A stretch of DNA of 64,000 nucleotides from Sulfolobales archaeon (GCA_026413885.1 JAOAKA010000001.1:374075-438074); one strand, 5' to 3'; shown: positions 510 through 60,984, numbered from the stretch's first letter. Program-made: numbers and translations. The notes: generated from the sequence alone by a model not told the origin.

Positions 510-1874
510 CTAGCGATTTCTTGAGATAACCACTAATTCATTGAGTAGTATTGCGAGTAACAGAATGTTTCTTACTGCTGCAAACCACTGAACTGGTGAA
601 TCTATAGTCCACGGGCTAAACGAGGTCTCTACCGGAACGCCTAACCTATTGAAGAAGTACCTTAGTTCTTCATCGTTGTAGAAGAAAAGCATTATAGAGA
701 AATTCGCTACATCAGATACTATGTAGGCTACTCTACTTGCTCTACTGAAGAAGATAAGCGCTAGAAGTGAAAATAGCAGAATCATTTGAGGAGTGAATAC
801 ATAGTTAAATAGAACCACTCCGAGTATTGAGACCGCCGATAGTCTAAATACCCGGACATCACTTCCAGCGTTCTTAACCGCGATTATGAGTGTTAGAACC
901 ACTAGTAGTACGGAAATAGATGCTAGAGCTAGAAATCTGTGAAGTGGATCAAATATGTTGTGTATTAATATCAAGTAAAGACAGTTTTCACAGTACCATG
1001 TAGAGTGATGTGCTATAAAATCGAAAAATCCTCTGGGCGCCAGCAGTAGGAGAGCTATATAGGGAGTAAGACCAGATAGTAGGATACCGATAAGTAAGCT
1101 GCCGATGGGATAAAGCTCACCATTCTTTCTCAACTTCATTAGTAGAGATATGAATATAACGTAGGCTATTGAGACAGTCAGAACTTTAGTAGCTATAGAT
1201 AAGCCAAGAAGCACTCCAGAAGTAAGATATCTCTTCTTTTGAAACGCAACTAGAGACCCTAGAGCTAGAGCTGCACAGATTATATCCCAATTATATACAG
1301 TGTAGAGAATAGTTGATGGTAGGATGAGCCAGATAGCTACTTTCATTAAATCAAAACTGCTGTCTAAAGCTACACCAAGCTTATACGCAAAATATGTGGC
1401 AGAAAGTAGAAATAGAGTAAGAAAAACTGCGCTCAGTGTGTAGTGGAGTTCTGCGACTCTATGGAGAACATGGATATAAGTAGATTCAGGAGTTCTACCT
1501 CCAAAAGCTACCGCGAGCGAGAAACAGGTAGTGAAATACCACAATAAGCCGATAACTGGAGGATACTCAAACATGTAGTCCAGGTATGGAATAGGGCAGA
1601 CATATCTCCCCTCTAATAATGACTTCAACACATCTGTATTATACCAGAACTCAGATTGGCGTCCAGATGTATTCATGAACCGCGGATAGAAAACACCGAA
1701 TACGACATCGGTATACATTAGCCCAAGAATACCGAGAGGTGGTTGATTAGATGGGATGTGAAGGTATGTAGAGACAGCACCTACAGCTAGAGATAAAAGT
1801 AGTAGTAGTGAATAAGACTTCGCGAAGTGAGGTATTAAGCCTTGAATGATCTCCCTGCACATACACTCACTCAC
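510..1874 (-). CDS. polytopic integral membrane protein, possibly a GT-C-like glycosyl/mannosyltransferase
   Basis: 454-aa ORF that is hydrophobic throughout, with more than 10 predicted TM helices. The architecture resembles DUF2029/PMT_2-type membrane glycosyltransferases. The function is a guess. Confidence 0.55.
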   Translation of the reverse strand: MSECMCREIIQGLIPHFAKSYSLLLLLSLAVGAVSTYLHIPSNQPPLGILGLMYTDVVFGVFYPRFMNTSGRQSEFWYNTDVLKSLLEGRYVCPIPYLDYMFEYPPVIGLLWYFTTCFSLAVAFGGRTPESTYIHVLHRVAELHYTLSAVFLTLFLLSATYFAYKLGVALDSSFDLMKVAIWLILPSTILYTVYNWDIICAALALGSLVAFQKKRYLTSGVLLGLSIATKVLTVSIAYVIFISLLMKLRKNGELYPIGSLLIGILLSGLTPYIALLLLAPRGFFDFIAHHSTWYCENCLYLILIHNIFDPLHRFLALASISVLLVVLTLIIAVKNAGSDVRVFRLSAVSILGVVLFNYVFTPQMILLFSLLALIFFSRASRVAYIVSDVANFSIMLFFYNDEELRYFFNRLGVPVETSFSPWTIDSPVQWFAAVRNILLLAILLNELVVISRNR

Positions 1875-6645: not shown

Positions 6646-8283
6646 TTAAAGTACTTCAACATATTGAAATAGAATTGCGTACATATATAGAGGGTTGAAC
6701 GCCTCATCTCTAACTATAATATTTGGTCTAGTAACATATGTTTGAATCACAGTCCAGAGAGATATCGCAAATGCTTCTTGAAATATCATGTACTGTGCTT
6801 TTTCATATAGTCTGAGGGCTTCTTCGTAATCAACTCCTTCCAGCTCATAGGCGGTATCGAGAAGCGTGTCTAATTCCTCACTACAGTAACCAGACCAATT
6901 CCACTCCACCGAGTCGCAGCGGACTAAGTAGAGGTAGTCATATGGAGTTGAGTATGTTGGCCACCAGTCGTTTATGATTAAATGTGGTGCTTCTTCAGGA
7001 TTTCTCCAGACAGCTGCTCCATATTCTTTAACTACCTCCCACGGGTAGCTACGTATCGTTAGCTTGATGCCTAGCTTTAGAAGCTCCGACTTTAGTAACA
7101 TAGCGAATATCTCTTCTTCTTCATAACCTGTTGTTATAACTATTTCGATTTCTACTTCTCTACCTTCGAGACCGGCTTTCCGTAGATACTCTCTCGCAAG
7201 ATCTAGATCGTATTTAAACCTCAGTCCATCGATATATCCCGGGTACCTGTAAGGTATAATACCACTTCCCGAAATACCGTAGCCATATAGAGCTCTATCA
7301 ATCAACTCATCCCAAGGAATAGAGTGAAGAATAGCTAGTCTAAACTCTGTTGCACTCGTAGGCCATCTACGTGTATTGAACATCAAAATGTAGCTATAAT
7401 AAGTATATTGTCTTATCAGTTTAAAGCCTTCGCTGACTAGAGACCTTATTTCAGCTTTCGGAATAGCCATAGCTATGTGGATACTCCCACCTCTTAAGCC
7501 CACTACCTGTGTTACAGGATCACCGACAATCCTAATGACTACGAGGTCTGGAGCTCTAAGATTGCCTACTTTAGCCCAACCCCACCACTTCTCAAATTTT
7601 CTCAACCTGATTTCACTTACTGGGTTATAGTACTCTATGTAGTAAGGACCGCTTCCGAGACTCCGGCCACTCTCAAACCAGGACCTAATGGATTTATCTG
7701 TCAGGTCTTTAGCTCCTGAGTACTCAAGTACTCTAGGGCTATATATGTAGGCACCGTATGAAGACGAAGCTATTAAGTCTATCGGAGCTGGGTACTTAAG
7801 TTTAAATCCTACAGCAGTTTTGTTTATAGCAACTATATCTTCCACCGAGCTCCAAATGTAACCGGAACCTAGACCGGTTTCATCATATATAACTTTAGTT
7901 CTCAGTATGCTGAATCTAACTGCTTCTACAGTTAAAGGAGTACCGTCGTGAAACACTACGTCGTCTCTTAATTTAAAAACCCAGAACGTCTCGTTTATCT
8001 TAGTCCAGCTTACAGCAAGAGCTGGTGTGAATTGATTTGTTAGAGGATTATAGTAGAAGAGAGGTTCGTAAACTGAGCCTAGAACTACTAACCCAGTATC
8101 GAACTCTACACTAGGGTCAATCCCGGTTATAGCGTCTCTATAAGCATAAACAACCACTCTGATTTGAGGACCTATAAAGTATGTAAGTGAAGAAAATACA
8201 GATATACTTACCACTAAAAAAACTACGAGACCGGTTACTATGAGTAGCCTGCGGCCAAACCTCATATGATTCCACGAAATCAC
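6646..8283 (-). CDS. peptide ABC transporter substrate-binding protein (family 5)
   Basis: 545 aa with an N-terminal TM anchor and a family-5 SBP-like body. It is the first gene of the dpp-like operon. The true start may be the internal Met (MRFGRR). Confidence 0.8.
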   Translation of the reverse strand: MISWNHMRFGRRLLIVTGLVVFLVVSISVFSSLTYFIGPQIRVVVYAYRDAITGIDPSVEFDTGLVVLGSVYEPLFYYNPLTNQFTPALAVSWTKINETFWVFKLRDDVVFHDGTPLTVEAVRFSILRTKVIYDETGLGSGYIWSSVEDIVAINKTAVGFKLKYPAPIDLIASSSYGAYIYSPRVLEYSGAKDLTDKSIRSWFESGRSLGSGPYYIEYYNPVSEIRLRKFEKWWGWAKVGNLRAPDLVVIRIVGDPVTQVVGLRGGSIHIAMAIPKAEIRSLVSEGFKLIRQYTYYSYILMFNTRRWPTSATEFRLAILHSIPWDELIDRALYGYGISGSGIIPYRYPGYIDGLRFKYDLDLAREYLRKAGLEGREVEIEIVITTGYEEEEIFAMLLKSELLKLGIKLTIRSYPWEVVKEYGAAVWRNPEEAPHLIINDWWPTYSTPYDYLYLVRCDSVEWNWSGYCSEELDTLLDTAYELEGVDYEEALRLYEKAQYMIFQEAFAISLWTVIQTYVTRPNIIVRDEAFNPLYMYAILFQYVEVL

Positions 8284-8446
8284 TTAGATAGTGCTTAAAA
8301 ATCTTATAGTCTAATGTAGACACTCGAATTTCTCTAAAGACATGAAAGATATCTATCGACGTATTAAAAGAACTACAAAGTTTACATATGGTTACATAAT
8401 TAAATTGAAAACTATCTATCCACCGTAGCCGGTACTAGCTGTGTTG

Positions 8447-8587
8447 CTAAGCAACTTCTGCGTTAGGGATTTTAGAGCTCTTTACGCAGAACTCTACACA
8501 CTCACGAAAAGCTTCACCGGAAAAACCTATTTCGAGGCATTTTTCTCTACATACTCTAACAATGTGATCTCTGTTGTAGGAGTCCAC
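8447..8587 (-). CDS. candidate small Cys-rich protein (46 aa, GTG start)
   Basis: Manual translation gives VDSYNRDHIVRVCREKCLEIGFSGEAFRECVEFCVKSSKIPNAEVA, with 4 Cys. An AAGCGCTTTAGCAAATA BRE/TATA-like element lies about 30 nt upstream, compatible with a leaderless mRNA. It is below the ORF-track threshold. Confidence 0.25.
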   Translation of the reverse strand: MDSYNRDHIVRVCREKCLEIGFSGEAFRECVEFCVKSSKIPNAEVA

Positions 8588-8796
8588 AGTAATACTCTAC
8601 ACCGGTAAACTATTTGCTAAAGCGCTTAAGTAGAGCACTACATCTGCGAACTCTAATTTAACGCTGGTGGAGTTTAATCGCACTTTGATATTTTAATATT
8701 ATTGCGACCGAGTCTGAAGAAGTTGAAGAGGTAATGAACGACTAGCTAACACCCGGGAAAGAACTCGCAGCTAGCTCACTCTCAGACTCAGTAGTT

Positions 8797-9627
8797 TTAA
8801 CCCGTACTTAAGCTGTGTGTTTTTAGATTAGTTTTTCCTGTGTTAAGGTCAAGCTCTACTAATACAGCTGTTTGCTGCGGAATCTCACCTGCATCTGTAT
8901 CACTGAGATACGATAGTAGAGAAGACGAGAAAAACACTCTAGAGTTTTCAAACTCTCTCGTTAAAATCTTGTAGTATTTCACGGCTAGACTGTCTCGTGC
9001 TCTCTGCTCTGCTAGATAAAAGGTTATAGAAGAAACTGCTTTCTCTCCATTGAAGAGTGTCGTAAGTGTGTTCATAGCTGTTTTCGTATATTTAGCCGCA
9101 CTCTTTAGAGCTTCAGCAAGTTTTTCAACATCAACACTGTCTAAGTATCTATACACAAACTCTCCGAGATAATATGTATCTGTCGTATCGAGCAGCTTAG
9201 CTATTCCCAGCGTTCTAGATAGGCCGTCCGAATCTACGACACCGTTGTGCGCGATCCACATTTCAAAACCTTTCCAGCTGTAGTAGATAGGGTGGGTATT
9301 ACCAATCTTCACAGAACCTTCTGCGGACTTTCTTGAGTGAGCAATAACTACACCTACTCGAATTTCTCGTAAAACACTCTTAAGACTCTCAACTCCAGCG
9401 AAATCACGATATACTGGTGTAGTAGACCTATAGTGTGTAGATATTTTTTCCCCGCTATCTCGAATGCCAACTACTGCGTATCCCCAGCCATCACTGTGAT
9501 TCTCACATTTACTACGCTTCAAATAATCTGCTAATATAAGATCGCATTCACTAGCTTTAACAAATGAGTCAATATATAGAGATAGCTTGGCTAAGTTAGT
9601 GCCTACCAACATGAGCAGCCTACACAT
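8797..9627 (-). CDS. class II (Ntn) glutamine amidotransferase, YafJ/EgtC-like
   Basis: The internal start gives MCRLL..., with Cys2 as the Ntn nucleophile. The sequence also contains HSDGWG and HNG. The ORF track extends 4 codons further upstream, to 9639. Confidence 0.7.
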   Translation of the reverse strand: MCRLLMLVGTNLAKLSLYIDSFVKASECDLILADYLKRSKCENHSDGWGYAVVGIRDSGEKISTHYRSTTPVYRDFAGVESLKSVLREIRVGVVIAHSRKSAEGSVKIGNTHPIYYSWKGFEMWIAHNGVVDSDGLSRTLGIAKLLDTTDTYYLGEFVYRYLDSVDVEKLAEALKSAAKYTKTAMNTLTTLFNGEKAVSSITFYLAEQRARDSLAVKYYKILTREFENSRVFFSSSLLSYLSDTDAGEIPQQTAVLVELDLNTGKTNLKTHSLSTG

Positions 9628-9738
9628 AGATGACTCCATAGTAGGAGATCTTAGCTTAATTTATTTGAAATAGGCTTTGAAGAATTAGAATATTAGGAAA
9701 AACTACTTGTTTAACCGATAATCGATACACAGCTAGTG

Positions 9739-9924
9739 TTAGCCTTTCTTTCTGCTTCCCATGAATACATATACCATAGTGCCGCAGACAGAGCAAGCTC
9801 CTCTAATTGCTCTTCTACCGTTCTTTAGTACTACCTCTTCCGAACTCTTTAATTCTCTCTTAGTTCTGCACTTAACACAGAAGCCGGTTACTGGTCCTTT
9901 AGCTGGACCTACAACTTGCGCCAT
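9739..9924 (-). CDS. small zinc-ribbon protein (DUF5679-like)
   Basis: CVKCRTKRE...KNGRRAIRGACSVCGT carries a CxxC...CxxC pair, followed by a basic tail. The start is taken at MAQVVG; the ORF track extends to 9951. Confidence 0.55.
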   Translation of the reverse strand: MAQVVGPAKGPVTGFCVKCRTKRELKSSEEVVLKNGRRAIRGACSVCGTMVYVFMGSRKKG

Positions 9925-10057
9925 GGATATCACTCGTGTATAGGCTCTCATGGGAGCTTAAAAGGTTTCTTCTACACATGAGACACTAAATCCCCAGGGA
10001 ACCCCACTTGACTATTATATATTTGTACAGTTAATTTCAGAGATAGCGGGACTAGAA

Positions 10058-20350: not shown

Positions 20351-21297
20351 TACTTCGGAATATTCTTTCTAAATAGGTCAGCAACAGGTCCGTGGATTCT
20401 GACAATAGTTTCCCACTCGTCAGGATCGTAGAATCTCGCCCTACCCATAGTGAAATCCTTAGCGACCTCTACCACGAATCTAGTTGCTTGCTCGAGAGCT
20501 ACAAAGTTAGTGATTCCAGTTCCCGAGCCGGGTAGAGCCATTCTAGCAGTTATAGCTACTCCAACTACTGGCGCCTTTGTGTATAGCCAGGGCTGCATCA
20601 TGCTGTTTATGTGGTATACCGGGGTAGAATATGGAAGTATGTCCTGCATTGTTATTGGTACCACAACCGGTGGTTCACCTGTAACTCTAACATATATATC
20701 GGTAAGGTCTGGACTGACCCTCAGTATCCAGCCCTCCTTAACGGTGGGAGTTATCGCGAAGCCCGTGTGCTTGATCACCCAGTTAGCTTTAGTAGCATCA
20801 ACTGAAAGAACTGAGTCCATCTCATCTCTAACTTCCTTCCTAAGCAGTGTGAAGATATCCACGGGAGAGTCCATCATGGGAGCGGGCTTGTAAGGCCTCG
20901 TTGGAGCGACTGGACACACGTGTGTAGTAATAATGACATCACCTGGGAGTACGTCACCTCGGGTCTTCATCTCAGCAATCTTATACGCAGTCGCGAGAGC
21001 TACGATGGCTCCATCAGCGTCTGAAACCATACCTATATACGCTGGTCTAGCTCCAATACCTCCCAACCTACCCACGACTCCCAGCGTAGGTGAATAACCT
21101 CCCGAGTTCTTGCCTATTCTTCCAGGAACAGTTATGGTTACAAAGTCTGTAGAACCTTTATCACCGTGAATAGTTTCTACTTCGATTTCCATATCCGTGA
21201 AGCCCTTATCGATAAAGAATTTTCTAACGATCTTGCCATTAACCCCGGGATGTTCGAGGAGATCCACTACCTCTAATATATGTTTTAAGGTAGACAT
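20350..21297 (-). CDS. DUF1177 family protein
   Basis: 315 aa, the first gene of a four-gene overlapping operon. The family assignment is from length and sequence memory. Confidence 0.5.
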   Translation of the reverse strand: MSTLKHILEVVDLLEHPGVNGKIVRKFFIDKGFTDMEIEVETIHGDKGSTDFVTITVPGRIGKNSGGYSPTLGVVGRLGGIGARPAYIGMVSDADGAIVALATAYKIAEMKTRGDVLPGDVIITTHVCPVAPTRPYKPAPMMDSPVDIFTLLRKEVRDEMDSVLSVDATKANWVIKHTGFAITPTVKEGWILRVSPDLTDIYVRVTGEPPVVVPITMQDILPYSTPVYHINSMMQPWLYTKAPVVGVAITARMALPGSGTGITNFVALEQATRFVVEVAKDFTMGRARFYDPDEWETIVRIHGPVADLFRKNIPK

Positions 21298-21474
21298 ATA
21301 TGACCACGATCGAAAATATCCTACTATATTTAAAAATCTTGTTTATTTAGTCTAGCGACTTTGCAAAAATTTCGAAATAAGTAAATCCATACTACTCTAC
21401 TTTTAATGAAGATATATGAAAACACATAATATGTTTATATACTAGTCCAAGTAATTCACTTTGGTGATATAATA

Positions 21475-23097
21475 ATGACTAAATCTTCCTCCGACTACCA
21501 CCCTAGGTTATATGAACCCATCGTCTTGGCTATGGGGCTCGTTCTAGCACTCTTTGGCGCTATTATCGGTATGGAGTTGATCTGTAGAGTGGGTATAAAT
21601 CCCAACACATCCATCATTGGGGCTCTCATAGCTATAACGTTTTCAGCTATACCGGTTCAAATTGCCCGAGCTATGCGCAATGTGCACAGAATCAACTTAA
21701 TGCAGACAGTGATATCAGGCGCCACTTTTCAAGCCGGGAACGTGTTCTTACTTACAATTGCAGTACCCTACCTATTAGGACTTACTGGAGGTGCTTACTT
21801 TACTGGTGTTATTATAGGTGTCCTCATCGCTGGTTTTGTAGATATACTTCTATCATATTGGATATTTGACTCTCCATTCTATCCTGCGAGGAACCCGTGG
21901 CCTCCCGGTATAGCAACAGCTGAAGCTATAAGGGCGGCTCTGAGTAGGGGTAAGAGGGCACTTATCCTACTCTACGGCATGATTTTCGGTGGAGCACTAA
22001 CTTACCTCGGCTATCCAGGTGATGTTGTAGGTATAACCCTCATAACTCAGATCGTAGCTATAACTTCGTTCGGTATTGGTCTCGTTATGAGGGCTTACGG
22101 TCCGGTATTAGTGGGTATCGATTTCTACAAGATATACGCTCCTCAAGGTATAATGGTTGGTGCTGGATTAGCAGCACTAATACAGTTCATCTTACTGTAC
22201 TTAAGAGTTAGAGGAAAGCAAGATGTTCAGCCGGTGAAAGGATCGTCCTCTAGTCTGTCGCCGGTGCTTGTTAATGCTGATGAGGCTTTGAGGAGACTAG
22301 CTATAGCTTTAGGTATATTTGTAGCTGGTGCTCTAGTTACCGCCTTAGTAACAGGTATCGGCGGAATGATGGATCCAGCAATGCTCCTCTTGTGGGTCAT
22401 CTACTTCGGTTTTCAAGCTTGGTTTACTACGTTAATCTGCGCTCTCTCAGGTATGTACGCAGGTTGGTTCCCCGCTTTTGCTACAGCACTAGCTGCTTTA
22501 GTAATAAGCCTCGTCTTCGGCTTCCCACCACTAGCAGCAGGTATCGGTGTAGCTTATGTTGCGGCGACTGGACCGGGGATGGCTGACCTTTCCTACGACT
22601 TAAAGACCGGCTGGATTCTTCGAGGTGAGGGGAGAGATCCAGAGTTTGAGAAAATAGGGAGAAAGTGGCAGTTCTACGCAAAAATACTCTCATTAGCTAT
22701 CTCCCTCACAATGATTGCTGTGTTCTACAGAGCCTACTTCGCCGGACTCAATCTATTTCCACCAGCAGCTAGAACTCTTGCTGCTACAGCTAAAGCAGTA
22801 GCAGACCCCGAGCTAGCGAGATGGCTACTCACTTGGGCGCCGCTAGGCTTTGTTCTACAACTACTAGGAGGACCTGAGAGACAGATCGGGATACTACTGG
22901 CTACAGGACTTATGATATCTAACCCACCAGCAGGTATAGCAGTTTTAGTGACAGTAGCTGCTAGACTAGCATTAATAAAAACTTTAGGAGTTGAGAAACT
23001 GCGAGATGTGTTCTATGTGGGTGGAGCAGGTGCCGTAGGAGGCTCAGCAATAGTGTCGTTTATAGTTTATACACTAAGAGCGTACCTTAGAATATAG
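21475..23097 (+). CDS. OPT-family oligopeptide transporter
   Basis: 540 aa with more than 12 TM helices and an OPT-like DLSYDLKTGWIL segment. It is divergent from the DUF1177 operon. Confidence 0.7.
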   Translation: MTKSSSDYHPRLYEPIVLAMGLVLALFGAIIGMELICRVGINPNTSIIGALIAITFSAIPVQIARAMRNVHRINLMQTVISGATFQAGNVFLLTIAVPYLLGLTGGAYFTGVIIGVLIAGFVDILLSYWIFDSPFYPARNPWPPGIATAEAIRAALSRGKRALILLYGMIFGGALTYLGYPGDVVGITLITQIVAITSFGIGLVMRAYGPVLVGIDFYKIYAPQGIMVGAGLAALIQFILLYLRVRGKQDVQPVKGSSSSLSPVLVNADEALRRLAIALGIFVAGALVTALVTGIGGMMDPAMLLLWVIYFGFQAWFTTLICALSGMYAGWFPAFATALAALVISLVFGFPPLAAGIGVAYVAATGPGMADLSYDLKTGWILRGEGRDPEFEKIGRKWQFYAKILSLAISLTMIAVFYRAYFAGLNLFPPAARTLAATAKAVADPELARWLLTWAPLGFVLQLLGGPERQIGILLATGLMISNPPAGIAVLVTVAARLALIKTLGVEKLRDVFYVGGAGAVGGSAIVSFIVYTLRAYLRI

Positions 23098-29397: not shown

Positions 29398-29487
<90 letters not shown>

Positions 29488-51856: not shown

Positions 51857-52165
51857 CTAGCTACTGCTTTCAACTACCTCTCTAGCTACACTACTTTCAA
51901 CTTGAGGAGCTGCTTCAGCTACTTCTATATCTATCGCTAAGTTCTCACTTAATTCGAGAGCTTTATAGAGTTTTTCACCAAGCTTAGTTAACCTGTAGAC
52001 TTTGTAGTTTCCTTTCGATATTACGAGCTCCACTATTTTCAGTTCTTCAAATACGTGTAGAGCGGCGAGAACTTCATAGCGAGGTAGGCCGGTAGCTATT
52101 ACTATATCTCCAGGTGTGAAGAATTTTGCGTACATAGCATCCAACAACTTTTTAATTCTACTCAA
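51857..52165 (-). CDS. winged-helix DNA-binding protein (putative regulator)
   Basis: 102 aa with an HTH-like segment DIVIATGLPRYEVLAALHVFEE followed by a wing KVYRLTKLG. It is divergent from the pilin operon. Confidence 0.55.
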   Translation of the reverse strand: MSRIKKLLDAMYAKFFTPGDIVIATGLPRYEVLAALHVFEELKIVELVISKGNYKVYRLTKLGEKLYKALELSENLAIDIEVAEAAPQVESSVAREVVESSS

Positions 52166-52246
52166 ATCTAACCCTTACTCTTGCTAGATATCTTACATCT
52201 TTTAAATAGTGATACATATTAGACTCAAATCCAGTCAGGCTGAAGA

Positions 52247-52273
52247 CTTAAGTAGTGGAGTAGTCTACTTAAG
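52247..52273. promoter_or_regulatory. inverted repeat CTTAAGTAG-N9-CTACTTAAG (operator candidate)
   Basis: Perfect 9-bp arms read directly from the sequence. It lies immediately upstream of the TTTATAAA box (52291..52298) that precedes the pilin ATG by about 30 nt. Confidence 0.6.
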
Positions 52274-52322
52274 CTACGCACTGTGAACTCTTTATAAAGG
52301 GCTCTACTAATGGGAAGCCTAT

Positions 52323-52778
52323 ATGTTTAATAGAAGAGCTAGAAGAGGTATTAGTGAGTTAGTTATAATACTTGCTCTAGTAGCTGTAGTGATACCCATA
52401 GTAATGATGCTTCAAGGCTGGCTCTCGAGTAGAGTGGGAAACTTAGAAAATGTCGATATAGTTCAGTCACTAAGTGGGTACCTCATCAGCAGGAGCTATA
52501 CAGATGGTAGAGAGGTCGTTACGATAGGCTTAAGAAACCAAGGTCAGACTACCTATGCTATACAGGACTTTAGAGCTCTGCTAGCTAATGGAACAGTTGT
52601 CGGTGGGTCTTTTATTACAGTGCGTGAGGCCTCTAGTGGTAGAGAGATTAAACCAGGTAGTGATAGAGTATTTACTATCGTAGTTACTACAGGAACCACC
52701 AGAGTGAAGGGAATTGTTGTAACAGCAAGTGAAGCAGCCACAAACAAGCAAGTAGAGGTATTAGTGAGTCTAGGATAG
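52323..52778 (+). CDS. archaeal type IV pilin-like protein (class III signal peptide)
   Basis: N-terminus MFNRRARRG|ISELVIILALVAVVIPIV has a basic stretch, a Gly and then a hydrophobic helix, as in PibD/FlaK substrates. The remainder is beta-rich. Confidence 0.6.
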   Translation: MFNRRARRGISELVIILALVAVVIPIVMMLQGWLSSRVGNLENVDIVQSLSGYLISRSYTDGREVVTIGLRNQGQTTYAIQDFRALLANGTVVGGSFITVREASSGREIKPGSDRVFTIVVTTGTTRVKGIVVTASEAATNKQVEVLVSLG

Positions 52779-52818: not shown

Positions 52819-55299
52819 TTGGAAACTCTTTTCAGTTATAACATCGGACTCTCATCTATAAGCATATTGAGAAATCCCTCTAGAGGCTACTACTACCTAG
52901 TTAACGATATCGAGCCTGAGAAATATGAAGCTATAGCTAAACTAGTAAGTAAAGCACTAGAACATGTAGATTCTCGAAAAAATGTAGGCATATACGATAT
53001 AGCTAAAGCAGTACTCACATATCTAAAAGGCTACAACCCAGAGTTAGTCACGTATGTAGTCAACCGGGAACTAAAGTATAAGAAACTTCAAGTGTTTTTA
53101 GATGATCCCTACGTCGAAGACATATCAATAGTTGGACCGGGGTCTGTATGGGTGAGACATAAATACGTACTGGAGAAAGACCCGCTCGCAGACTATATCG
53201 AGACCAACGTAATGATAAATACGTACGAAGAGTTAATGAGCTATATGGAGCTAATAGCGGAGAGGTCGGGAAGAGTAGTCAATAGAAAAACCCCCATTAT
53301 GGACTTCACACTACCTGAAGAAGATGGCGGCCACAGAGTTCATATAGTTCTTCCCGATGTAGCTCACTCTACTGGAGAAATCGTAGTTAGAAAAAAGTTG
53401 AGCTATACGTCAGTAGACCTTGACTCTCTAGTAGACACTGGTATGATAACCCCCCCTGTTGTTGAATTAATAAAGATAGTCGTTAGGAGGGGTGGGTCTA
53501 TAGTAATTCTCGGACCTCCCGGGTCCGGTAAAACCACGCTACTCAAAGCTGTGATATACTCAGCTGTACCGGCGTTCTGGAAGATAGCTATAATCGAGGA
53601 TACACCAGAGATAGATACACCGAAAGGCTCTAGTTGGGTTAGATATACAGTTCCAACTAATGTGTGGGGTTCTGAGAGAGGTATAGATCAGATGGCTCTA
53701 GCTAAAGCCGCACTTAGAGCATCCGTTAGTAAATTCTTAGTAATTGGTGAAACACGTGGAGCTGAAGCAAGAATACTAGTACAAGCAATGAACATGGGTC
53801 TGGGGGGGCTGTGTCTACCTGCCGACCAGCTACTGCTAGCTAGAGTGGATGGGAGGATAGATCTGTACGAAATTAGAGCAATTGTTGAGGGAATGTTGAG
53901 AGGAATGTATAGAAGAGTTGAAGTTGTGTCAATCGGACCTGAACTAAAGCCTGTCTGGCGGCCCGTATCTGCAGCGGTCGTTAAGAATGGTAGTCGTAGA
54001 TTCATTAGAATAGAGGTAGATAGTGGAGCTACTCATGAAGTACACGAAAGCCACGATGTAGTGGTAGTAGATAGTACATTTAATCTCACCATCAAGAAAG
54101 CCGGAGAGCTTAAACCTGGAGACATACTCGCATCCTTTCACTCTCTACCTAATTTAACTGAGGAGAGGAAGTTCGTAGACTTACTGGAGGCGTCTAGATG
54201 CTCAAGCAATACCGAGAACTCAGACTCTCGAAGTCTTCAAAAAGTAGAGTCAAATATAGCAGGGAGTTTAGAGCACTATACACACTTAAGACTTGTAGAA
54301 CTTAATGAGGACTTAGGCTACATATTCGGACTATATGCGGCTTCTGGTAGAGTTGAGGGAGACTCCTCGGAAAACTCGACGAGTATATACTTCAATATCG
54401 GCACAGCTATCTTAGATAGAGTAGTTGAATCTCTAAAAAGATTTAAAGTAGAGAAAATCAGAGTAGACACACTTCAAGCTCAGGAGGGAATAACTAGAGT
54501 GCTTGCGGAATCTCGCTTGCTATCAGTACTACTTTCGAGAATGGTAGGTGAAGGAGTTGACGACTCGTCGAAGAGAGTACCGCTCGACTTACTCATTGAG
54601 TCGACCGAGGAGTTTAGAATAGGTTTTCTCAGAGGTTACTGTGACGGCTTAGGACCACTATGTAGCTTCAGTAAAGATGGTGTAGTCGAGATTCACACTC
54701 AAAGTAGAAAAGTAGCTGAGTCACTATCTCTTATCCTTAAAACTCTTAAAGTATCTTCATCAGTTAGACCCAGTTACTCGAGAGGTAGAGAACACCACAC
54801 GGTTTACGTAGATAGAGATATAGATAGATTTCTATATATCGTGAGAAAGAAGAAGTACATTAATGAAGACAGCGACACCTCGGAAAGTCTGAAGAGGATT
54901 GGAGAACTCACTCTGCTGAGAGTTCGAAGTACCACCGTAGTCGAGAAAGATAGCCTACTGTACGATATAGAGGTGCCGGAGGTCCACCTCTACGCTATCT
55001 CTGGTTCTCTAATACTAACTCACAATACAACATTTCACGCTGGATCACCTGAAGAAGCTATAGTTAGACTTACATCACCTCCGATAGAGTTAACACCTCA
55101 GCAACTGTCTATGATATGGCTATTTATAACTCTCGGCTTCATAGAGAGAGAAGGTTTAAGAAGAGTTGTTACTAGAGTAGATGAACCAGTCTTTAAATCG
55201 GGCACGCTGTTTCTCAATACGATATATAGATACGGTGAGAGTTTAGACTTAGATACTCTCATCAAGAGGTTTTCTAGAGTTAGAGATTTATGGATTTAA
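52819..55299 (+). CDS. type II/IV secretion-system ATPase (VirB11/FlaI/KlbA family) interrupted by an intein
   Basis: Walker A GPPGSGKTT, Walker B/Glu box FLVIGETRG, and a His-box region AMNMGLGGL / TTFHAGS split by 405 aa. An AGGTG Shine-Dalgarno sequence lies 9 nt upstream of the TTG start. Confidence 0.9.
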   Translation: METLFSYNIGLSSISILRNPSRGYYYLVNDIEPEKYEAIAKLVSKALEHVDSRKNVGIYDIAKAVLTYLKGYNPELVTYVVNRELKYKKLQVFLDDPYVEDISIVGPGSVWVRHKYVLEKDPLADYIETNVMINTYEELMSYMELIAERSGRVVNRKTPIMDFTLPEEDGGHRVHIVLPDVAHSTGEIVVRKKLSYTSVDLDSLVDTGMITPPVVELIKIVVRRGGSIVILGPPGSGKTTLLKAVIYSAVPAFWKIAIIEDTPEIDTPKGSSWVRYTVPTNVWGSERGIDQMALAKAALRASVSKFLVIGETRGAEARILVQAMNMGLGGLCLPADQLLLARVDGRIDLYEIRAIVEGMLRGMYRRVEVVSIGPELKPVWRPVSAAVVKNGSRRFIRIEVDSGATHEVHESHDVVVVDSTFNLTIKKAGELKPGDILASFHSLPNLTEERKFVDLLEASRCSSNTENSDSRSLQKVESNIAGSLEHYTHLRLVELNEDLGYIFGLYAASGRVEGDSSENSTSIYFNIGTAILDRVVESLKRFKVEKIRVDTLQAQEGITRVLAESRLLSVLLSRMVGEGVDDSSKRVPLDLLIESTEEFRIGFLRGYCDGLGPLCSFSKDGVVEIHTQSRKVAESLSLILKTLKVSSSVRPSYSRGREHHTVYVDRDIDRFLYIVRKKKYINEDSDTSESLKRIGELTLLRVRSTTVVEKDSLLYDIEVPEVHLYAISGSLILTHNTTFHAGSPEEAIVRLTSPPIELTPQQLSMIWLFITLGFIEREGLRRVVTRVDEPVFKSGTLFLNTIYRYGESLDLDTLIKRFSRVRDLWI
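53812..55026 (+). mobile_element. intein (405 aa) with a LAGLIDADG homing-endonuclease domain
   Basis: It starts with Cys1 (CLPADQLLLARVDG) and ends ...SLILTHN, followed by a +1 Thr. Block F-like LLYDIEVPEVHLYAISG is present. Two dodecapeptide motifs, LGYIFGLYAASG and FRIGFLRGYCDGLG, lie about 100 aa apart. Confidence 0.85.
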
Positions 55300-56720
55300 C
55301 CAACATATTTAATCTCTCTACAGCTAAGATTTTAACTAAGTACTTCGAGTTTTTGAATAATGTAAGAGTAGCTAGAGGTGAACCTCGCGTAGAGCACAGC
55401 AAGCTTCTTCTCTACATACTCAAAATGTCTACAGCACCTACATCTCTACTACTGATGCTTTCATATGTAGCATACGCGCACCACAGAGTTCTCAGTCTAT
55501 ACTATGTGATTCCACTATCTATTGCTGCATTTTTTACTATACCAGTATTTTTAGAGCTTCTGAGATATGTTAACTACATAAGAAATCTAAGAGAGGACCT
55601 CACCTACTTCATGATAATAGATGGTATGTGCCCCGGTGATGACTTAATTAAGGACCTAGAGGAAGACTCAGAAGCTATATGTTCCTTTCTTCCATCACTA
55701 TGTATTGAGAACTCTAGGCTAAAGCTGTTTATGAAGTTCTTTCCCGGTGTTAGAGGTGTAAAAGAGTACGTACTTAGAGCTCCAAAACCTATGAGAAAAC
55801 TACTACTGGAGTATGTAACTACTCGCGAGAGTGCTAGCTTCAGCACCTGGGTCTACAGTAAGTATCAGGAAGCTCTCCGCGAAGTAAAGGTTTCAGCTAG
55901 GAACTCTCTAGAGCTTAAAACAATTCTGAGTTTAACTGCTGTAATATTTAGTGGTTTAACACCACCGATTATAGCACTTACAGCTCTAGTAATGGGTGGT
56001 CAAGAAGTACTTTACGCATATCCTCTAATAACTCTACCAGCTGTAGCTATGGCTATCTCAGAGAGATCAGTACCTAGGATACTTAAGGTACCATCAGGAA
56101 GTAGAAGACTCAAAGTCTCAGCAGCTCTATCTACATTATCTCTCTCGATATCTCCAGTGATAGGATTGAGAAACTCGGTCGCTATAGCTGGAGTAGTCTT
56201 CCTAGTTCTCGGAGTGGTGGCGAGTGTAAAATTCATTAGAGCCTACCTCGAGCTTATCTCAATACCTTCGCAACTAGTTATTCTAGCTGATAAGCTACCC
56301 TATTCAGATAGACCTCTAGAGCTAGTTAGGGAGAGTCTAGGTGAGATACTAGGTCGCAGTGTCTTTACTTCTGTCTGTTACTACATGTTGTTTAAAGCAG
56401 TTAAGAAGGGCGATATAGATTCAGCGAGAATTATAGCATTTAAAGACGTAGTTGAAGAACTATTCTCACTAGTAAAGCAGAGTGCGGCTGTTAGAGCTCT
56501 AGTTGTAGCTACAGCGATTTTTCTACCTTTTGTCTCGATATTCTCTATATCTCTAGCAGTATCTATGAATACAGCTAGTAGTGTGCTATATCTATACTAC
56601 TTCACATCATCACTCTTCTACAGTGTTATAGCAACACATACAGCTTTCGGAACTCTTGAAAACACCTTCTTAGTCGGACTCGTAATGATCGAGCTCTACA
56701 CACTAGGTGTTGTTCCGTGA
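55290..56720 (+). CDS. polytopic membrane protein, FlaJ/TadC (T2SS-F)-like platform candidate
   Basis: 476 aa with two repeats of a soluble helical segment followed by TM bundles. It overlaps the ATPase gene by 10 nt. The assignment rests on architecture and position. Confidence 0.55.
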   Translation: MDLTNIFNLSTAKILTKYFEFLNNVRVARGEPRVEHSKLLLYILKMSTAPTSLLLMLSYVAYAHHRVLSLYYVIPLSIAAFFTIPVFLELLRYVNYIRNLREDLTYFMIIDGMCPGDDLIKDLEEDSEAICSFLPSLCIENSRLKLFMKFFPGVRGVKEYVLRAPKPMRKLLLEYVTTRESASFSTWVYSKYQEALREVKVSARNSLELKTILSLTAVIFSGLTPPIIALTALVMGGQEVLYAYPLITLPAVAMAISERSVPRILKVPSGSRRLKVSAALSTLSLSISPVIGLRNSVAIAGVVFLVLGVVASVKFIRAYLELISIPSQLVILADKLPYSDRPLELVRESLGEILGRSVFTSVCYYMLFKAVKKGDIDSARIIAFKDVVEELFSLVKQSAAVRALVVATAIFLPFVSIFSISLAVSMNTASSVLYLYYFTSSLFYSVIATHTAFGTLENTFLVGLVMIELYTLGVVP

Positions 56721-58789
56721 AAGTCCCTCTAGTAACTAGAGTAGTGAGGTTAAGTGAGGTACTCAGAGAGCTCGGTGCTGTCGAGAAAGTAGAGCTAGCA
56801 GGGAGTACTTCGGGGAAACCAGTACTTAAAATTTCCAGTGGTAACTCCATCTACATCTACACTCTAACTGAAGAACCTCGTAGAGTAGTATCTTTTAGTA
56901 CCTCAAGTAAGGCTCTAAAGATAGGTGACATCTCTATTGAGCGTGAAAATCGTGAGGTAATGCTTAGCTTTGGAGGTAGAGTATTTAGAGGTATCGGCTT
57001 TATCGATATCTACGGCACGTCTATCTACGTGGCTGCGTGTAGTAGAAGCAAGTGTGTCACCGGCGTACTAGACTTAGTTGACGGATTAACGAAGCTGTAT
57101 AGCTTAGATATGCCGGAGCTGCGCTTACTTGATTTAAGAAGCACTAGCATTAGTATAGGTTATGGAGGCTTCTCAATAAGCAGTAAGTCGGTGACTATAT
57201 CTGCATCAGTAAGCAGTGTTGAAGTGCTTCCAGGTTTCTTTAGATATATCGCTAGCTGCGCCTCAGGTGACTACTTAATAGATAGAGATAGCTTCTTAGT
57301 TAGAGTTAGGAAGAACTCTCTAGACATATTGGGAAGAGTAAACGAGGTTATTTCAGCTGCCTGTGTGAGTGACGGTATAGCTATCGCCGATAGAGAGGGG
57401 TTGAAGATCGTGAGATATGGAGCATACACAAATGTTATGAGAGAAGCTATTAGAGAGGTATCGTCCCATAGAGACATAATCTCTATAGTCAGTAAATCAG
57501 GGTTAGTCAAAGTTTTAAGCAGAAAGAACGCGTACACACTGGATTCTCCAGCGCTAAAGTCGTGCAAATTAACAACAGAAGGTCTCGCCTGTCTTACTGA
57601 GGACTCCGTAATTTTTCTGGACCCTGAAACTCTTATCGACGTAGTGGCTGAAGTCCACATAGATAGTGAGAGTGGTTTAGTAGAGCTAGTTGCTCAACCG
57701 TGGTTTGAGCAGTGCCACTATTTAATTACACCAAAAATCGTAGCCGTACTTAGAGAAGAAGTAGTTAGCGGAGTGCTTCACGCCAAACTCTACCCGAAGG
57801 TCCTAGGGTGGGAGGGATATGTTAGAGCTATTGTCGAATGTCCGACATACAGCAGGAGTATTGAGGAATTCGCTAAATTCGGTAGAATTGAGCTCGATGA
57901 ACTCACCGAGAAGCTCGTTACTATAGCTAGGTTCGGGAGAGTGTTTGGAAGCAAGAACAGCAACTGTGTAGGCAGACTTAAACTCAGGCTGAGGAGTAGA
58001 TTTCCAGTTCAGATCCCTTTCGAGGTGAGATTCGAAGGAGTTGAAGATATTGATGTGAAAATTAGCAGTACTTTCGTGGATCCTGGTCTCAGTGATTTCA
58101 CTATTAGGTTTACTGGAAGGTGCTCAGAAAATAGAGGTGTATACACTAAGTTAGTTGCAGCTTCCGGGTTGGTTGAACCAGAAGAAATAGCTTCAGTCTA
58201 TATAGATCCCAGAGAATTTAGAGTGATAGACCGGAGCTACCACAACGATGTTGAAATAGTAGATAGCGAATATAGTACTACGATTAAAGCATTAGGTGGA
58301 AACCTAAAGCTCTACTGCTTGAATGGAGAGAGATTTGAGGGTGGGGACAGTCTTCTAGTGAAGAATTGTGAAGAACCAGCTCTTCTTGAAGTAGTTAAGA
58401 CAGATGCTGTAGATAGTGAGTTATTTGAATTTAGCTTAAGTAGAATACTTAGAGGAACTGTTCAGAAGTGTTTTTCTGAAGCAGTTAATGAGAGAGCTGT
58501 TAGTGGAGGTTTCTACGCAGACTGCTCTAGATATGAAACAACTTCGAATAAAGACTTAGACATGAAAATCGAGTATAGCAACAACTATAAAGTTGCTACC
58601 TACTTAGGTGGAAGTAAGCTATCTGAAGCAGAGCTAGATCCAGTCTACATGCTGACGGGAATCTCAGTTGATTTAGGAGTCGGTAGAGTTAGGTTACACT
58701 GGAGAGAGCTAGTAGAACTATCGACTAAGACAGCTCTAGCTATAGGTAAATACTTGAGGGGGGTCATCCTTGAGAAATATGGTAGTTGA
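56717..58789 (+). CDS. hypothetical protein (690 aa), operon-specific orphan
   Basis: Long intact ORF with a GTGA start/stop overlap onto the upstream gene. No TM helix or signal peptide is evident, and no motif was recognised. Confidence 0.6.
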   Translation: MKVPLVTRVVRLSEVLRELGAVEKVELAGSTSGKPVLKISSGNSIYIYTLTEEPRRVVSFSTSSKALKIGDISIERENREVMLSFGGRVFRGIGFIDIYGTSIYVAACSRSKCVTGVLDLVDGLTKLYSLDMPELRLLDLRSTSISIGYGGFSISSKSVTISASVSSVEVLPGFFRYIASCASGDYLIDRDSFLVRVRKNSLDILGRVNEVISAACVSDGIAIADREGLKIVRYGAYTNVMREAIREVSSHRDIISIVSKSGLVKVLSRKNAYTLDSPALKSCKLTTEGLACLTEDSVIFLDPETLIDVVAEVHIDSESGLVELVAQPWFEQCHYLITPKIVAVLREEVVSGVLHAKLYPKVLGWEGYVRAIVECPTYSRSIEEFAKFGRIELDELTEKLVTIARFGRVFGSKNSNCVGRLKLRLRSRFPVQIPFEVRFEGVEDIDVKISSTFVDPGLSDFTIRFTGRCSENRGVYTKLVAASGLVEPEEIASVYIDPREFRVIDRSYHNDVEIVDSEYSTTIKALGGNLKLYCLNGERFEGGDSLLVKNCEEPALLEVVKTDAVDSELFEFSLSRILRGTVQKCFSEAVNERAVSGGFYADCSRYETTSNKDLDMKIEYSNNYKVATYLGGSKLSEAELDPVYMLTGISVDLGVGRVRLHWRELVELSTKTALAIGKYLRGVILEKYGS

Positions 58790-60470
58790 GTTTAGAGACG
58801 GTTATCTCGTTATTAGAAAAAACTCAGAAGTCTGTGTTAAAGGGTTTACTAAAGTAGTTAACGTTAGTACAGCTATACAGGACTTAGATGACTATACATC
58901 GGTAAAGTACATCAAGACTTATATAAACTCACTTAATTTAGGGTTTCCCCTAGAATTTCACACCGTAGTTAAGCCTGTAGATAGAGTTGCGTTTATTAAA
59001 AACTTAGAGAGAGCTATAGTCGATAACACTATAGTATATGAAGTAAATCAATTCAGAGTCGACAGCAAGGTGAGAGCGGAGAGAGCTAGATTTATAAGAA
59101 ATAGAGTGCTCAAAGACTCTCTACAGCCCTTCGAAATAGAGGTCTTCATTACTGCTTCAGCCTGCAGTGAGGAGTTTGTAAGTGCTCTAGAAACACTGAA
59201 GACCAGACTGAGGATTCTGAAAAGCGCTCTAAACTCTCTGGGAGTCGATATCGAGAAAGTAAATGCGGAGAAAGCTTCTTTTAAACTACTTGCTGTTGAG
59301 CTACAGCTGAGGAGACAGAGTGCTTTCAGTAGGTTAGTAGATAGATTTAGAAGAAGACTTACTGTAGCTGATTTAGTTTCTCTCCCACTATTTACATTCA
59401 TCCCCTTACTGGGTAGAGCTAAGTTCGCCCTCAGGTCGTCTGGAGTTAGATTAGGGATAGATCTAGAGAGTGGTGAGGAAGTCTATTGGAATATCGATGA
59501 GTCAACGTCACCTCATATACTGGTGGTTGGACCATCTGGAATAGGTAAGACCACCTTTCTAGCTGAGCTATCTACATCTATCAGTAGAATCGGTATTGGA
59601 GTATTAGTTGTAGACCCGAAGAATGAATATAGAAAATTCTTTGAGTCCAGCGGCGTAGAGGTGTCTCACTACACTCTAGGTAGGAGTATATCGATCGGAT
59701 TAACAGAGATTTTGAAGACTCTCGGCAGCTCTTCGAGTAGAGATATCGCAGAAGTTTTACTGGACATACTTTCGACACATCGAGAACTCGGTAAAAAAGA
59801 GGTTTTCTCGTGTCTCTACTCAACCCTCAGCAGTCTTAATGCTATTTCTGAAGGTGGAGACTCGGAGTTCATAAACTTATTGAAGAGAATGACTAGATAC
59901 TGCTCTGAAGAGTATTCAGAGTACGTCACAAATAAAGTCTTAACCACACTAGCAACAGTATCAGCTAGCGAGTATAGTCTAGCTAAATTAATTAGAGAGC
60001 TTAATAAGATATCTGTTGTCGATATTTCAACAGCTCTCTCTATAGATCCTTCTATACTACCGCTACTCTTAAAAGTAGTTTCAGTAGCTATTAGAACTTC
60101 TGGGAGAACTTCACTAAAGAAACATAAGTACTGGAGAATGCTTGTAGTAGATGAAGCTTGGACTATTCTAAGAGATAACTCACTTACGGCTGTGGAGGAA
60201 TTAGTTAGAGTTGGGAGGAGCTTCGGTACTATTGTAGCACTAGCTACTCAAGCCGTGAGAGATTTTACTAAGGCGCTAGGACCACTAGTAGATAATCTAG
60301 GACTACTAGTAGTACTACCATCAACTAGTGCTGAGTACTGGGAAGAAGTAAATAGAATGCTTAAAGTAAGCAGTGAGCGAGTAGAGAAAGCGAGATCTCT
60401 CGGAAGAGGATACGCTCTCGTAAGAATAGCCCCGGACCCCAGGGCTACTTTAATTAAACTAGCTCTATAG
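58770..60470 (+). CDS. VirB4/HerA-type (DUF87, FtsK-HerA superfamily) ATPase
   Basis: Walker A VVGPSGIGKTTFL, Walker B MLVVDEAWTIL, then RSFGTIVALATQ, which is typical of VirB4/TrbE/CedB-like ATPases. It overlaps the upstream gene by 20 nt. Confidence 0.7.
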   Translation: MRNMVVEFRDGYLVIRKNSEVCVKGFTKVVNVSTAIQDLDDYTSVKYIKTYINSLNLGFPLEFHTVVKPVDRVAFIKNLERAIVDNTIVYEVNQFRVDSKVRAERARFIRNRVLKDSLQPFEIEVFITASACSEEFVSALETLKTRLRILKSALNSLGVDIEKVNAEKASFKLLAVELQLRRQSAFSRLVDRFRRRLTVADLVSLPLFTFIPLLGRAKFALRSSGVRLGIDLESGEEVYWNIDESTSPHILVVGPSGIGKTTFLAELSTSISRIGIGVLVVDPKNEYRKFFESSGVEVSHYTLGRSISIGLTEILKTLGSSSSRDIAEVLLDILSTHRELGKKEVFSCLYSTLSSLNAISEGGDSEFINLLKRMTRYCSEEYSEYVTNKVLTTLATVSASEYSLAKLIRELNKISVVDISTALSIDPSILPLLLKVVSVAIRTSGRTSLKKHKYWRMLVVDEAWTILRDNSLTAVEELVRVGRSFGTIVALATQAVRDFTKALGPLVDNLGLLVVLPSTSAEYWEEVNRMLKVSSERVEKARSLGRGYALVRIAPDPRATLIKLAL

Positions 60471-60628: not shown

Positions 60629-60705
60629 GCCGGGGTAGCTCAGCCAGGTAGAGCGCCGGGCTGTTAACCCGGTGGTCGGAGGTTCGAGTCCTCCCCCCGG
60701 CGCCA
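60629..60705 (+). tRNA. tRNA-Asn (anticodon GUU), CCA encoded
   Basis: Hand fold: acceptor GCCGGGG/CCCCGGC, anticodon stem CCGGG/CCCGG with loop CTGTTAA, T arm GGAGG-TTCGAGT-CCTCC, discriminator G. Confidence 0.9.
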
Positions 60706-60804: not shown

Positions 60805-60984
60805 TTAAGCTGGGTAGTCTTCCGGAACTTTAGCTCTAAAGTACTTCCCACTCGGGCTCTTGAAGAGTCCTATTTTAACTCCTTTCCTCCCCTTGGGAGC
60901 TAGAGTCCAGATTTTCTCTGGAACTAACTCTAGTTCCTGTCCTGTGTGTGGGTCTTTTACCTTGACGGGATGTTTCTTGCTCAT
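60805..60984 (-). CDS. cren7: chromatin protein Cren7
   Basis: Manual translation gives [59 protein letters not shown] (59 aa). It is below the ORF-track threshold and matches the Cren7 family core motif [14 protein letters not shown]. Confidence 0.9.

Follow-up and report, generated by a model that had tools for sequence, protein, structure and literature searches.

In a 64,000-nt stretch of a Sulfolobales archaeon genome (GCA_026413885.1; hereafter the window, in which positions are counted from the first letter), the gene at 58770..60470 encodes a predicted soluble ATPase of the CedB clade, which is the last gene of an operon for a type IV pilus (T4P). The same six genes are found in the same order in ten complete lineages, whose ATPases share ~25-64 % identity with the window protein: a winged helix-turn-helix (wHTH) gene on the minus strand, a pilin gene, the gene of a T2SSE ATPase, those of a membrane protein of ~480-506 aa and of a protein of ~690-803 aa, and finally the CedB-like ATPase gene. 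Because a CedB relative devoid of a membrane anchor is always the last gene of this conserved pilus operon, these data suggest a compact pilus-plus-motor machine, which would serve DNA exchange in uncultured archaea.

Family and domain organisation of the ATPase

An earlier note, made from the same DNA, had described the product as a VirB4/CedB-like ATPase of the FtsK-HerA/VirB4 clade, with Walker A, Walker B and RSFGTIVALATQ boxes following an N-terminal non-ATPase domain of roughly 230 aa. All three motifs were located in the open reading frame (ORF) 58770-60470 (Table 1), and their core residues (G254, P255, G257, G259, K260, D461, E462, W464, R483, A492, T493 and Q494) do not vary among 19 homologues; most of them, P255 and T493 excepted, are also constant in a broader set of 23. 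Furthermore, the Pfam families AAA_10 (46.8 bits, cutoff 27.5) and DUF87 (41.6 bits, cutoff 23.2) both match above their cutoffs. With Walker A, Walker B and the downstream GR...ATQ box in one domain, the product is a predicted member of the FtsK/HerA/VirB4 superfamily, and its catalytic motifs appear intact. The Pfam ATPase region begins at ~aa 236, in agreement with the N-terminal domain of ~230 aa described earlier. The two domains are joined by a moderately hydrophobic, conserved linker, LTVADLVSLPLFTFIPLLG (aa 197-215; nt 58770+588 to 58770+644), in which P212 is invariant; in a protein without a transmembrane (TM) anchor, this linker could contact the membrane or a partner.

The ORF starts at a TTG codon, 7 nt downstream of a Shine-Dalgarno-like box (GAGGGGGG), and cannot be extended further upstream because a stop codon bounds it. 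An alternative start, ATG at 58779, is used in the NCBI gene call of the same genome and gives 563 aa; the longer form of 566 aa is the one to which the homologues align.

The search against NCBIfam returned CedB (NF041017) as the best family (E = 3.4e-52, 177.9 bits; aa 9-564 against model positions 64-586 of 590), in a collinear alignment that takes in the N-terminal non-ATPase domain. This bears out the CedB part of the earlier label. The next family reaches 39.5 bits, nearly 140 bits under CedB, and VirB4, TraC, HerA_antiphage, CedD and HerA_Thermprot all stay below 40 bits. As for the VirB4/TraC/TrbE proteins, the VirB4 model TIGR00929 (cutoff 643 bits) gives 38.6 bits, and the length is 566 aa against ~800 aa, which places the protein outside this family. 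Clustering within HerA sensu stricto, which according to the earlier note would have spoken against its proposal, is not what we find: HerA_Thermprot gives 13.3 bits (E = 0.02) and HerA_antiphage 36 bits, and the top sequence match in the PDB, Sulfolobus HerA (4d2i), has an E value of 4.5e-4 only. The window protein lacks the first ~65-90 positions of the CedB model, where canonical CedB has its one or two TM helices.

When 1.84 billion representative proteins were searched with a profile, the matches fell into two tiers. The first, called here group B, comprises 18 clusters of full-length proteins (554-602 aa, 306-877 bits), and the canonical CedBs are found in the second (~580-630 aa, 180-230 bits). 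When seven group-B clusters (P0032-P0048) were scanned, CedB was the sole NCBIfam family at E ≤ 1e-15, with 160-326 bits and an alignment starting only from about model position 74-91; canonical CedBs, including the protein of Acidianus manzaensis that carries this name, reach 546-890 bits with that model. The lower scores and the late start of the alignment are explained by the absence of the N-terminal TM helices. Indeed, a hydropathy scan detected no such helix in any of 19 group-B sequences, whereas one or two are present in all ten canonical CedBs and in seven of nine other relatives. This lack of the anchor throughout the sampled group B had escaped the earlier note.

A phylogeny was computed by neighbor joining (NJ) only, with 100 bootstraps and 24 group-B sequences. 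Group B is recovered in 99/100 replicates and canonical CedB in 89/100, and the two are joined in 94/100 to the exclusion of the other anchored relatives and of the VirB4-like proteins. The window ATPase falls outside the clade of characterised CedBs, in a separate sister clade. Since CedB is its top family, no TM helix is predicted and the NJ clades are distinct, the protein is, as judged by its sequence, a soluble sister lineage of CedB, and neither HerA nor VirB4 proper. CedB homologues without a membrane anchor have been reported (PMC11823120, PMC11868833), and group-B proteins may already sit in earlier surveys as "CedB without TM".

The pilus operon and its conservation

The ten complete lineages are the window (together with L008 and L009, which come from the same organism and were counted with it), L001-3, L004, L005, L006, L007, L010 (a metagenome-assembled genome, MAG, of the Desulfurococcaceae), L011/12 (of the basal P0047 type), L014 and L016. 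The identity of their ATPases to the window protein is 64 % in L001-3, 51 % in L004, 33 % in L005, 30 % in L006, 28 % in L007 and 30 % in L010. An eleventh locus, L017, fits the six-gene order and is cut by a contig end. The CedB-like ATPase gene comes last in all ten complete lineages, and it overlaps or abuts the gene before it in the loci examined. A counterpart of the membrane protein stands at the same position in all complete loci, as does, in all loci, a counterpart of 688-803 aa of the 690-aa protein. The linkage of the ATPase to a pilus is real, deeply conserved and no peculiarity of the window genome. The earlier note had proposed that the motor either swapped partners between two classes of machines or acquired a new use, and the shared gene order, including the locus cut by the contig end, favours this proposal.

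The operon has the two hallmarks of an archaeal type IV pilus, a pilin with a class III signal peptide and an ATPase of the T2SSE/FlaI family. In the window its adjoining genes overlap by 10 nt (T2SSE/membrane protein), 4 nt (membrane protein/690-aa protein) and 20 nt (690-aa protein/ATPase; 11 nt if the ATPase starts at ATG 58779). The features are listed in Table 1.

Table 1. Features of the pilus operon, its control region and the ATPase in the window
Feature	Position (nt)	Residues (aa)	Strand	Remarks
wHTH gene	51857..52165	102	-	probable winged-helix DNA-binding protein; divergent from operon
Divergent promoter region	52166..52322			between wHTH and pilin genes
Second A/T box	52199-52209			faces wHTH gene
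Perfect 9-bp inverted repeat	52247-52273			CTTAAGTAG-N9-CTACTTAAG; between the two divergent TATA-like boxes
TATA-like box	52290-52299			CTTTATAAAG; ~25 nt 5′ of pilin start
Pilin-like protein	52323..52778	151	+	type IV; class III signal peptide MFNRRARRG / ISELVIILALVAVVIPIV
T2SSE assembly ATPase	52819..55299	826	+	FlaI/VirB11 family; length includes intein
Intein	53812-55026	332-736	+	405 aa; LAGLIDADG homing endonuclease; just before TTFHAG box
Polytopic membrane protein	55290..56720	476	+	two soluble helical regions
Orphan protein	56717..58789	690	+	overlaps membrane-protein and ATPase genes
CedB-clade ATPase gene	58770..60470	566	+	FtsK/HerA/VirB4 superfamily; soluble; TTG start; stop codon included
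Walker A	59529-59555	254-262	+	GPSGIGKTT
Walker B	60141-60161	458-464	+	LVVDEAW
RSFGTIVALATQ motif	60216-60251	483-494	+	
tRNA-Asn(GTT)	60629-60705			begins 158 nt past ATPase stop

The presence of a T4P-type pilin, already seen in the earlier note, is borne out by the cleavage context RRG/ISEL, with R8, G9, S11 and L13 invariant and a hydrophobic helix following in six of six homologues; the hydropathy of the window pilin peaks at aa 12-30, and a weak match to ArlF (FlaF-type beta-sandwich, E = 7e-4) was obtained. No class III signal peptidase (PibD/FlaK) was seen in the operon, the rest of the window not having been searched for one. The assembly ATPase matches Pfam T2SSE (PF00437) with 50.9 bits against a cutoff of 24.9, and its spliced form of 421 aa scores highest with FlaI (155 bits), followed by BasE (116), TadA (114), VirB11 (TIGR02788, 106) and TrbB (92); the FlaI-type and the CedB-like ATPases score below the VirB11 and the VirB4 cutoffs, respectively. 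The intein, with matches to LAGLIDADG_3 (34.6 bits) and Intein_splicing in Pfam, is shared by the window, L001-3 and L004. Its boundaries (C...HN/T) were set by alignment with the homologues of L005, L007, L010, L011 and L014, in which the same site is empty.

The membrane protein of 476 aa contains about five strong hydrophobic segments in a hydropathy scan, and its soluble helical and TM regions alternate. Its position, size and alternating organisation fit a platform protein, and we regard it as a candidate pilus platform (FlaJ/TadC position) by virtue of where its gene stands. On the other hand, the "FlaJ-like" label given to it in the earlier note finds no sequence support, as none of nine members of the family has a match in Pfam, NCBIfam or the PDB. 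An internal repeat of the T2SSF type was also sought, and the weak signal obtained with hhalign (E = 0.013, probability 3 %) is no evidence for it.

Two components of the cluster did not figure in the earlier note. One is the 690-aa protein encoded between the membrane protein and the ATPase, for which neither a signal peptide nor a TM segment is predicted. Its family has no sequence match in Pfam, NCBIfam or the PDB (eight members in the Pfam and PDB profile scans). In an AlphaFold2 model, it is predicted to be all-beta, with a propeller-like N-terminal part, a beta-sandwich C-terminal part and a C-terminal helix; a Foldseek comparison of this model with the PDB gave generic propeller or immunoglobulin (Ig)-like matches only, with TM-scores ≤ 0.16, which speak to the fold class only. 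The other is the divergent wHTH protein, which is the best conserved of the cluster (46-76 % identity in eight loci vs ~25-64 % for the ATPase) and gives weak matches to MarR_2 in seven of eight members (best E = 4.5e-4), as well as to TrmB, HTH_45 and EarA-like families, all below curated cutoffs. In most loci TATA-like boxes lie ~25-30 nt 5′ of the pilin start, and a CTTTATAA-like box stands at an equal distance from it in L005, L006, L010, L011 and L014. The inverted repeat between the two divergent boxes of the window is not kept in sequence in the other loci; therefore, its role as an operator is only a guess.

As to the surroundings, the operon is flanked by housekeeping genes (ABCE1/RLI, L13e, L40e, Cren7, an Asp/Asn-type tRNA synthetase and an Lhr-type helicase), and the G+C content is flat over the region. 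Genes outside the operon vary between several loci. A neighbourhood of Cren7, Metallophos, DUF2204 and L40e recurs on one side or the other in distant lineages, a sign that the operon is inherited vertically, on the chromosome, and not of mobility. The cren7 gene (60805-60984, minus strand, in the window) is located within a few kb of the operon also in L004, L007, L014, L016 and L017, usually just downstream, and a Metallophos phosphoesterase gene often lies beside it, converging on the ATPase gene. In L004, a 1.2-Mb contig of the Joint Genome Institute, the counterpart of the 690-aa protein is split into overlapping ORFs of 388 and 315 aa (7928-9989), which may reflect a frameshift, a pseudogene or an assembly error. 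Two group-B subclades occur together in the MAG of the Desulfurococcales archaeon ex4484_42 (OYT44252.1 and OYT44625.1, in the clusters of P0039 and P0047): either this genome would carry two pilus-CedB operons or the bin is mixed.

Absence of an adjacent CedA, proposed function and alternative explanations

The earlier note had stressed that no VirB6/CedA-like or VirB2-like partner adjoins the ATPase gene. This observation holds: family models for CedA, CedA1 and CedE found nothing among the proteins encoded upstream of the ATPase gene, tblastn of the whole window with CedA and CedA1 queries gave no match, and none of the three proteins was found within ±10 kb of any group-B locus. Its reading as an anomaly does not, since the canonical cedB of Acidianus manzaensis is solitary, no ced or pilus gene lying closer than 8 kb, and in S. 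acidocaldarius cedB (saci_0748) and cedA (saci_0568) are unlinked (PMC11823120); lack of an adjacent cedA is normal for CedB. A different arrangement was found on a Desulfurococcales-type contig, where P0064, a TM-anchored relative, directly follows CedA1 (119.9 bits, cutoff 100) and CedA (157.9 bits), with a CedD-like anchored ATPase 8 kb away. CedB-like genes occur in three configurations, i.e., solitary and anchored, CedA-linked and anchored, and pilus-linked and soluble.

We favour, with about half of our confidence, the explanation that a type IV pilus machine (type IV filament, TFF), rather than a VirB6/VirB2-type Ced machine, has the ATPase as its dedicated motor subunit, and that the ATPase probably moves DNA. 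According to this explanation, the pilin would be made with its class III signal peptide and processed, and the FlaI-type ATPase would polymerise the processed pilin on the 476-aa polytopic membrane protein, to which we assign the platform role by inference; the resulting pilus would touch another cell or capture DNA. Proteins of the FtsK/HerA/VirB4 superfamily habitually form rings. The soluble CedB-like ATPase would likewise assemble into a ring, be recruited to the cytoplasmic face of the membrane complex, most plausibly through docking on the 690-aa all-beta protein, and move DNA across the membrane at the expense of ATP; ring formation, docking, the nature of the substrate and the direction in which it travels are all inferred. 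Under the presumed control of the divergent winged-helix protein, a single operon would accomplish what takes two separate systems, Ups pilus and Ced importer, acting jointly in Sulfolobales.

Several observations weigh against this explanation. DNA as the substrate is suggested by homology to CedB only, and the score with NF041017 stays far below the equivalog cutoff of 700 bits. No DNA conduit was recognised in the operon: the 476-aa protein and its eight homologues match nothing in Pfam, NCBIfam or the PDB, including T2SSF, FlaJ, CedA (VirB6-like) and CedE, and the single-sequence AlphaFold model of this protein is unusable (pLDDT, predicted local distance difference test, 38.6). The model of the 690-aa protein is of moderate confidence only (pLDDT 63.3, predicted template modelling score 0.44). 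Furthermore, every member of group B comes from a metagenome or a MAG (Desulfurococcales, Acidilobales, "Sulfolobales archaeon"), from hot springs and vents, and no cultured organism was seen among them. Finally, L004 encodes, ~9.5 kb past the operon (21206-21680), a 551-aa DUF87/HerA_C ATPase with a strongly hydrophobic, multi-TM N-terminus, which resembles the CedD-like anchored ATPase of L013; its 158 readable aa gave no NCBIfam match. Because this anchored ATPase is possibly CedD-like, other Ced-type parts may exist in group-B genomes. A stronger form of the same idea, namely a self-contained DNA-transfer machine of a class so far undescribed, with a T4P filament, membrane passage through the divergent platform protein or through a complex based on it, and a soluble CedB-type ring on a beta-rich adaptor of ~700 aa, without any VirB6/VirB2-type part, would be a chimera of T4P and type IV secretion system (T4SS)/Ced, equivalent in function to Ups plus Ced in crenarchaea without Ups. 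We consider it possible and hold it only tentatively.

The ATPase might instead be the organism's plain CedB, acting in trans with an unlinked channel and pilus of the CedA/CedA1 (VirB6/VirB2) type, as is the case in Sulfolobaceae, the operon being one for an Ups-like aggregation pilus that is only co-regulated. Such a view would agree with the unlinked cedB and cedA genes of Acidianus and S. acidocaldarius, with the position of group B as sister clade of canonical CedB, with the report that among CedB/CedD/VirB4 proteins about one in two has no TM helices (PMC11868833) and with the possibly CedD-like ATPase near the L004 operon. However, co-regulation would not require anything like so close a coupling, as the ATPase gene is always last and overlaps or abuts its neighbour even at ~25 % ATPase identity; moreover, CedA, CedA1 and CedE were not found within ±10 kb of the group-B loci or in the window, and the ATPase beside the one CedA1-CedA pair observed belongs to a different, anchored lineage. 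We therefore rate this view as rather unlikely, if worth keeping in mind. Alternatively, the second ATPase could serve the pilus and not DNA, by extracting or re-inserting pilins in the manner of VirB4 (to help assembly or retraction), or it could drive protein secretion. Indeed, pilus biogenesis by bacterial T4SS requires VirB4, and the assembly of Ced has been suggested to draw its energy from CedB (PMC11823120), archaea are without PilT (PMC4858521), and in the operon, as in bacterial T4SS, an ATPase of the VirB11 family (VirB11 106 bits, TrbB 92 bits) occurs together with one of the VirB4 superfamily. Yet DNA import, and not aggregation, is what the closest characterised relative is needed for (PMC11823120, Table 1), the pilin is of the T4P and not of the VirB2 type, and no precedent is known that would tie VirB4-like ATPases to T4P pilins, so that this explanation too appears unlikely to us.

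Chance adjacency, a HerA repair helicase and a mobile element at the tRNA-Asn were considered and rejected on the basis of the scores, the flanks and the conserved adjacency. The top PDB match and DUF87, which is the central domain of HerA, would be in line with a repair helicase or a defence-system HerA that came to lie next to the pilus operon by chance, but 13 and 36 bits with the HerA models compare with 178 bits for CedB, no NurA, Mre11, Rad50 or defence partner genes are found nearby, and an adjacency kept in every lineage examined is not due to chance; this possibility is very improbable. As noted earlier from the sequence and confirmed here, the ATPase gene ends 158 nt before tRNA-Asn, and the ATPase has a distant resemblance to a plasmid protein, its best plasmid match being F-type TraC (23 % identity, E = 8e-4). 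An integrated mobile element or a remnant of a conjugative plasmid is nonetheless hardly credible in view of the uniform G+C content, the housekeeping flanks, the absence of any integrase around the operon, the neighbourhood of Cren7, Metallophos, DUF2204 and L40e kept in distant lineages, and the lack of matches to archaeal plasmids or viruses at E ≤ 1e-3.

Relation to known systems and to the literature

The window ATPase resembles canonical CedB in its top family match, in the collinearity that extends to the N-terminal domain, in the catalytic motifs, in its place in a sister clade and in the absence of cedA beside its gene. It differs by its score of 178 bits (cutoff 700), by the missing anchor and by the place of its gene within an operon for a type IV pilus, canonical cedB being solitary. 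In the Desulfurococcales-type Ced (CedA1-CedA-CedB) and the Ted system of Thermoproteales, too, a VirB4/CedB-like ATPase is encoded along with a polytopic membrane protein and the subunit of a filament. However, theirs are the VirB2-like CedA1/TedC, the VirB6-like CedA/TedA and an anchored ATPase (PMC9905601), while the window has a T4P pilin with a class III signal, a FlaI-type ATPase and a membrane protein that matches neither CedA nor CedE.

The Ups operon (upsX-E-F-A-B), reported only from Sulfolobales (PMC9905601, PMC11868833), is likewise a type IV pilus operon with an extra large cytoplasmic protein devoid of recognisable domains, and Ups pili act jointly with Ced in DNA exchange. This protein, UpsX (arCOG05986, ~79 kDa), for which several Ig folds have recently been described, promotes the exchange of DNA and, following UV, relocates to the membrane (PMC3892339; bioRxiv 10.64898/2026.04.22.720090). 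The 690-aa protein is similar to it in size, cytoplasmic location, lack of domains and beta-rich prediction, as far as the comparison by description goes. The two operons differ in gene order and in the number of pilin genes, two in Ups and one here, and the Ups operon as described has no gene for a CedB-like ATPase.

Bacterial T4P-dependent uptake, with a Com pseudopilus or a type IVa pilus and a cytoplasmic motor, and the transjugation of Thermus offer a further parallel, since they combine a type IV filament with a separate cytoplasmic P-loop DNA motor. The components, however, are not orthologous, and no ComEC-like channel was recognised in the window operon. In bacteria, the genes of the motors generally lie outside the pilus operon. 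In Thermus, T4P act with the HerA-superfamily ATPases TdtA/HepA (cited in PMC11868833). With bacterial T4SS the window operon shares the pairing of VirB11-family (TIGR02788) and VirB4-superfamily ATPases; in contrast, it has no recognisable homologues of VirB2, VirB3, VirB6, VirB8 or VirD4, and its filament subunit is of the T4P type.

A full-text literature search returned no description of a pilus-linked ATPase of the CedB type. In the 2016 census of archaeal T4P loci, the FtsK-HerA superfamily comes up solely as the one to which the secretion ATPases belong, and the entries for HerA and VirB4 in the accessible part of Table S4 of Makarova 2016 concern genes at the flanks of loci in Cenarchaeum, Haloarcula and Fervidicoccus and do not represent this operon. 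The words CedB, HerA and VirB4 are absent from the archaeal pilus census of April 2026. The Ced/Ted literature (PMC9905601, PMC11823120, PMC11868833; the 2016 PNAS paper on Ced lies outside this scope) deals with anchored and anchor-less CedB homologues and reports no linkage to a pilus. These findings suggest that the operon is new, its two parts, a CedB-type ATPase and an archaeal type IV pilus system, being of kinds already known.

Among Crenarchaeota, it is only for Sulfolobales that the exchange of DNA is understood; there, the Ups pilus provides contact and a separate Ced system import. How contact is made in lineages without Ups and how pili are coordinated with the importer have been named as open questions (PMC11868833). 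An operon in which a CedB-type motor is wired into a type IV pilus module is a concrete, testable candidate for the link between pilus and importer, and its six proteins form a defined set whose interactions, structures and biochemistry can be studied. If the favoured explanation is true, this would be a second, independent case in which a different filament system took over an ATPase of the VirB4 superfamily, with a bearing on the exchange of parts between T4P and T4SS.

Elsewhere in the window, tRNA-Gly(CCC) (29398-29487, plus strand) was called at 90 nt, which exceeds the standard length of a tRNA. Introns are common in crenarchaeal tRNAs, and the length of this one suggests that it contains an intron.

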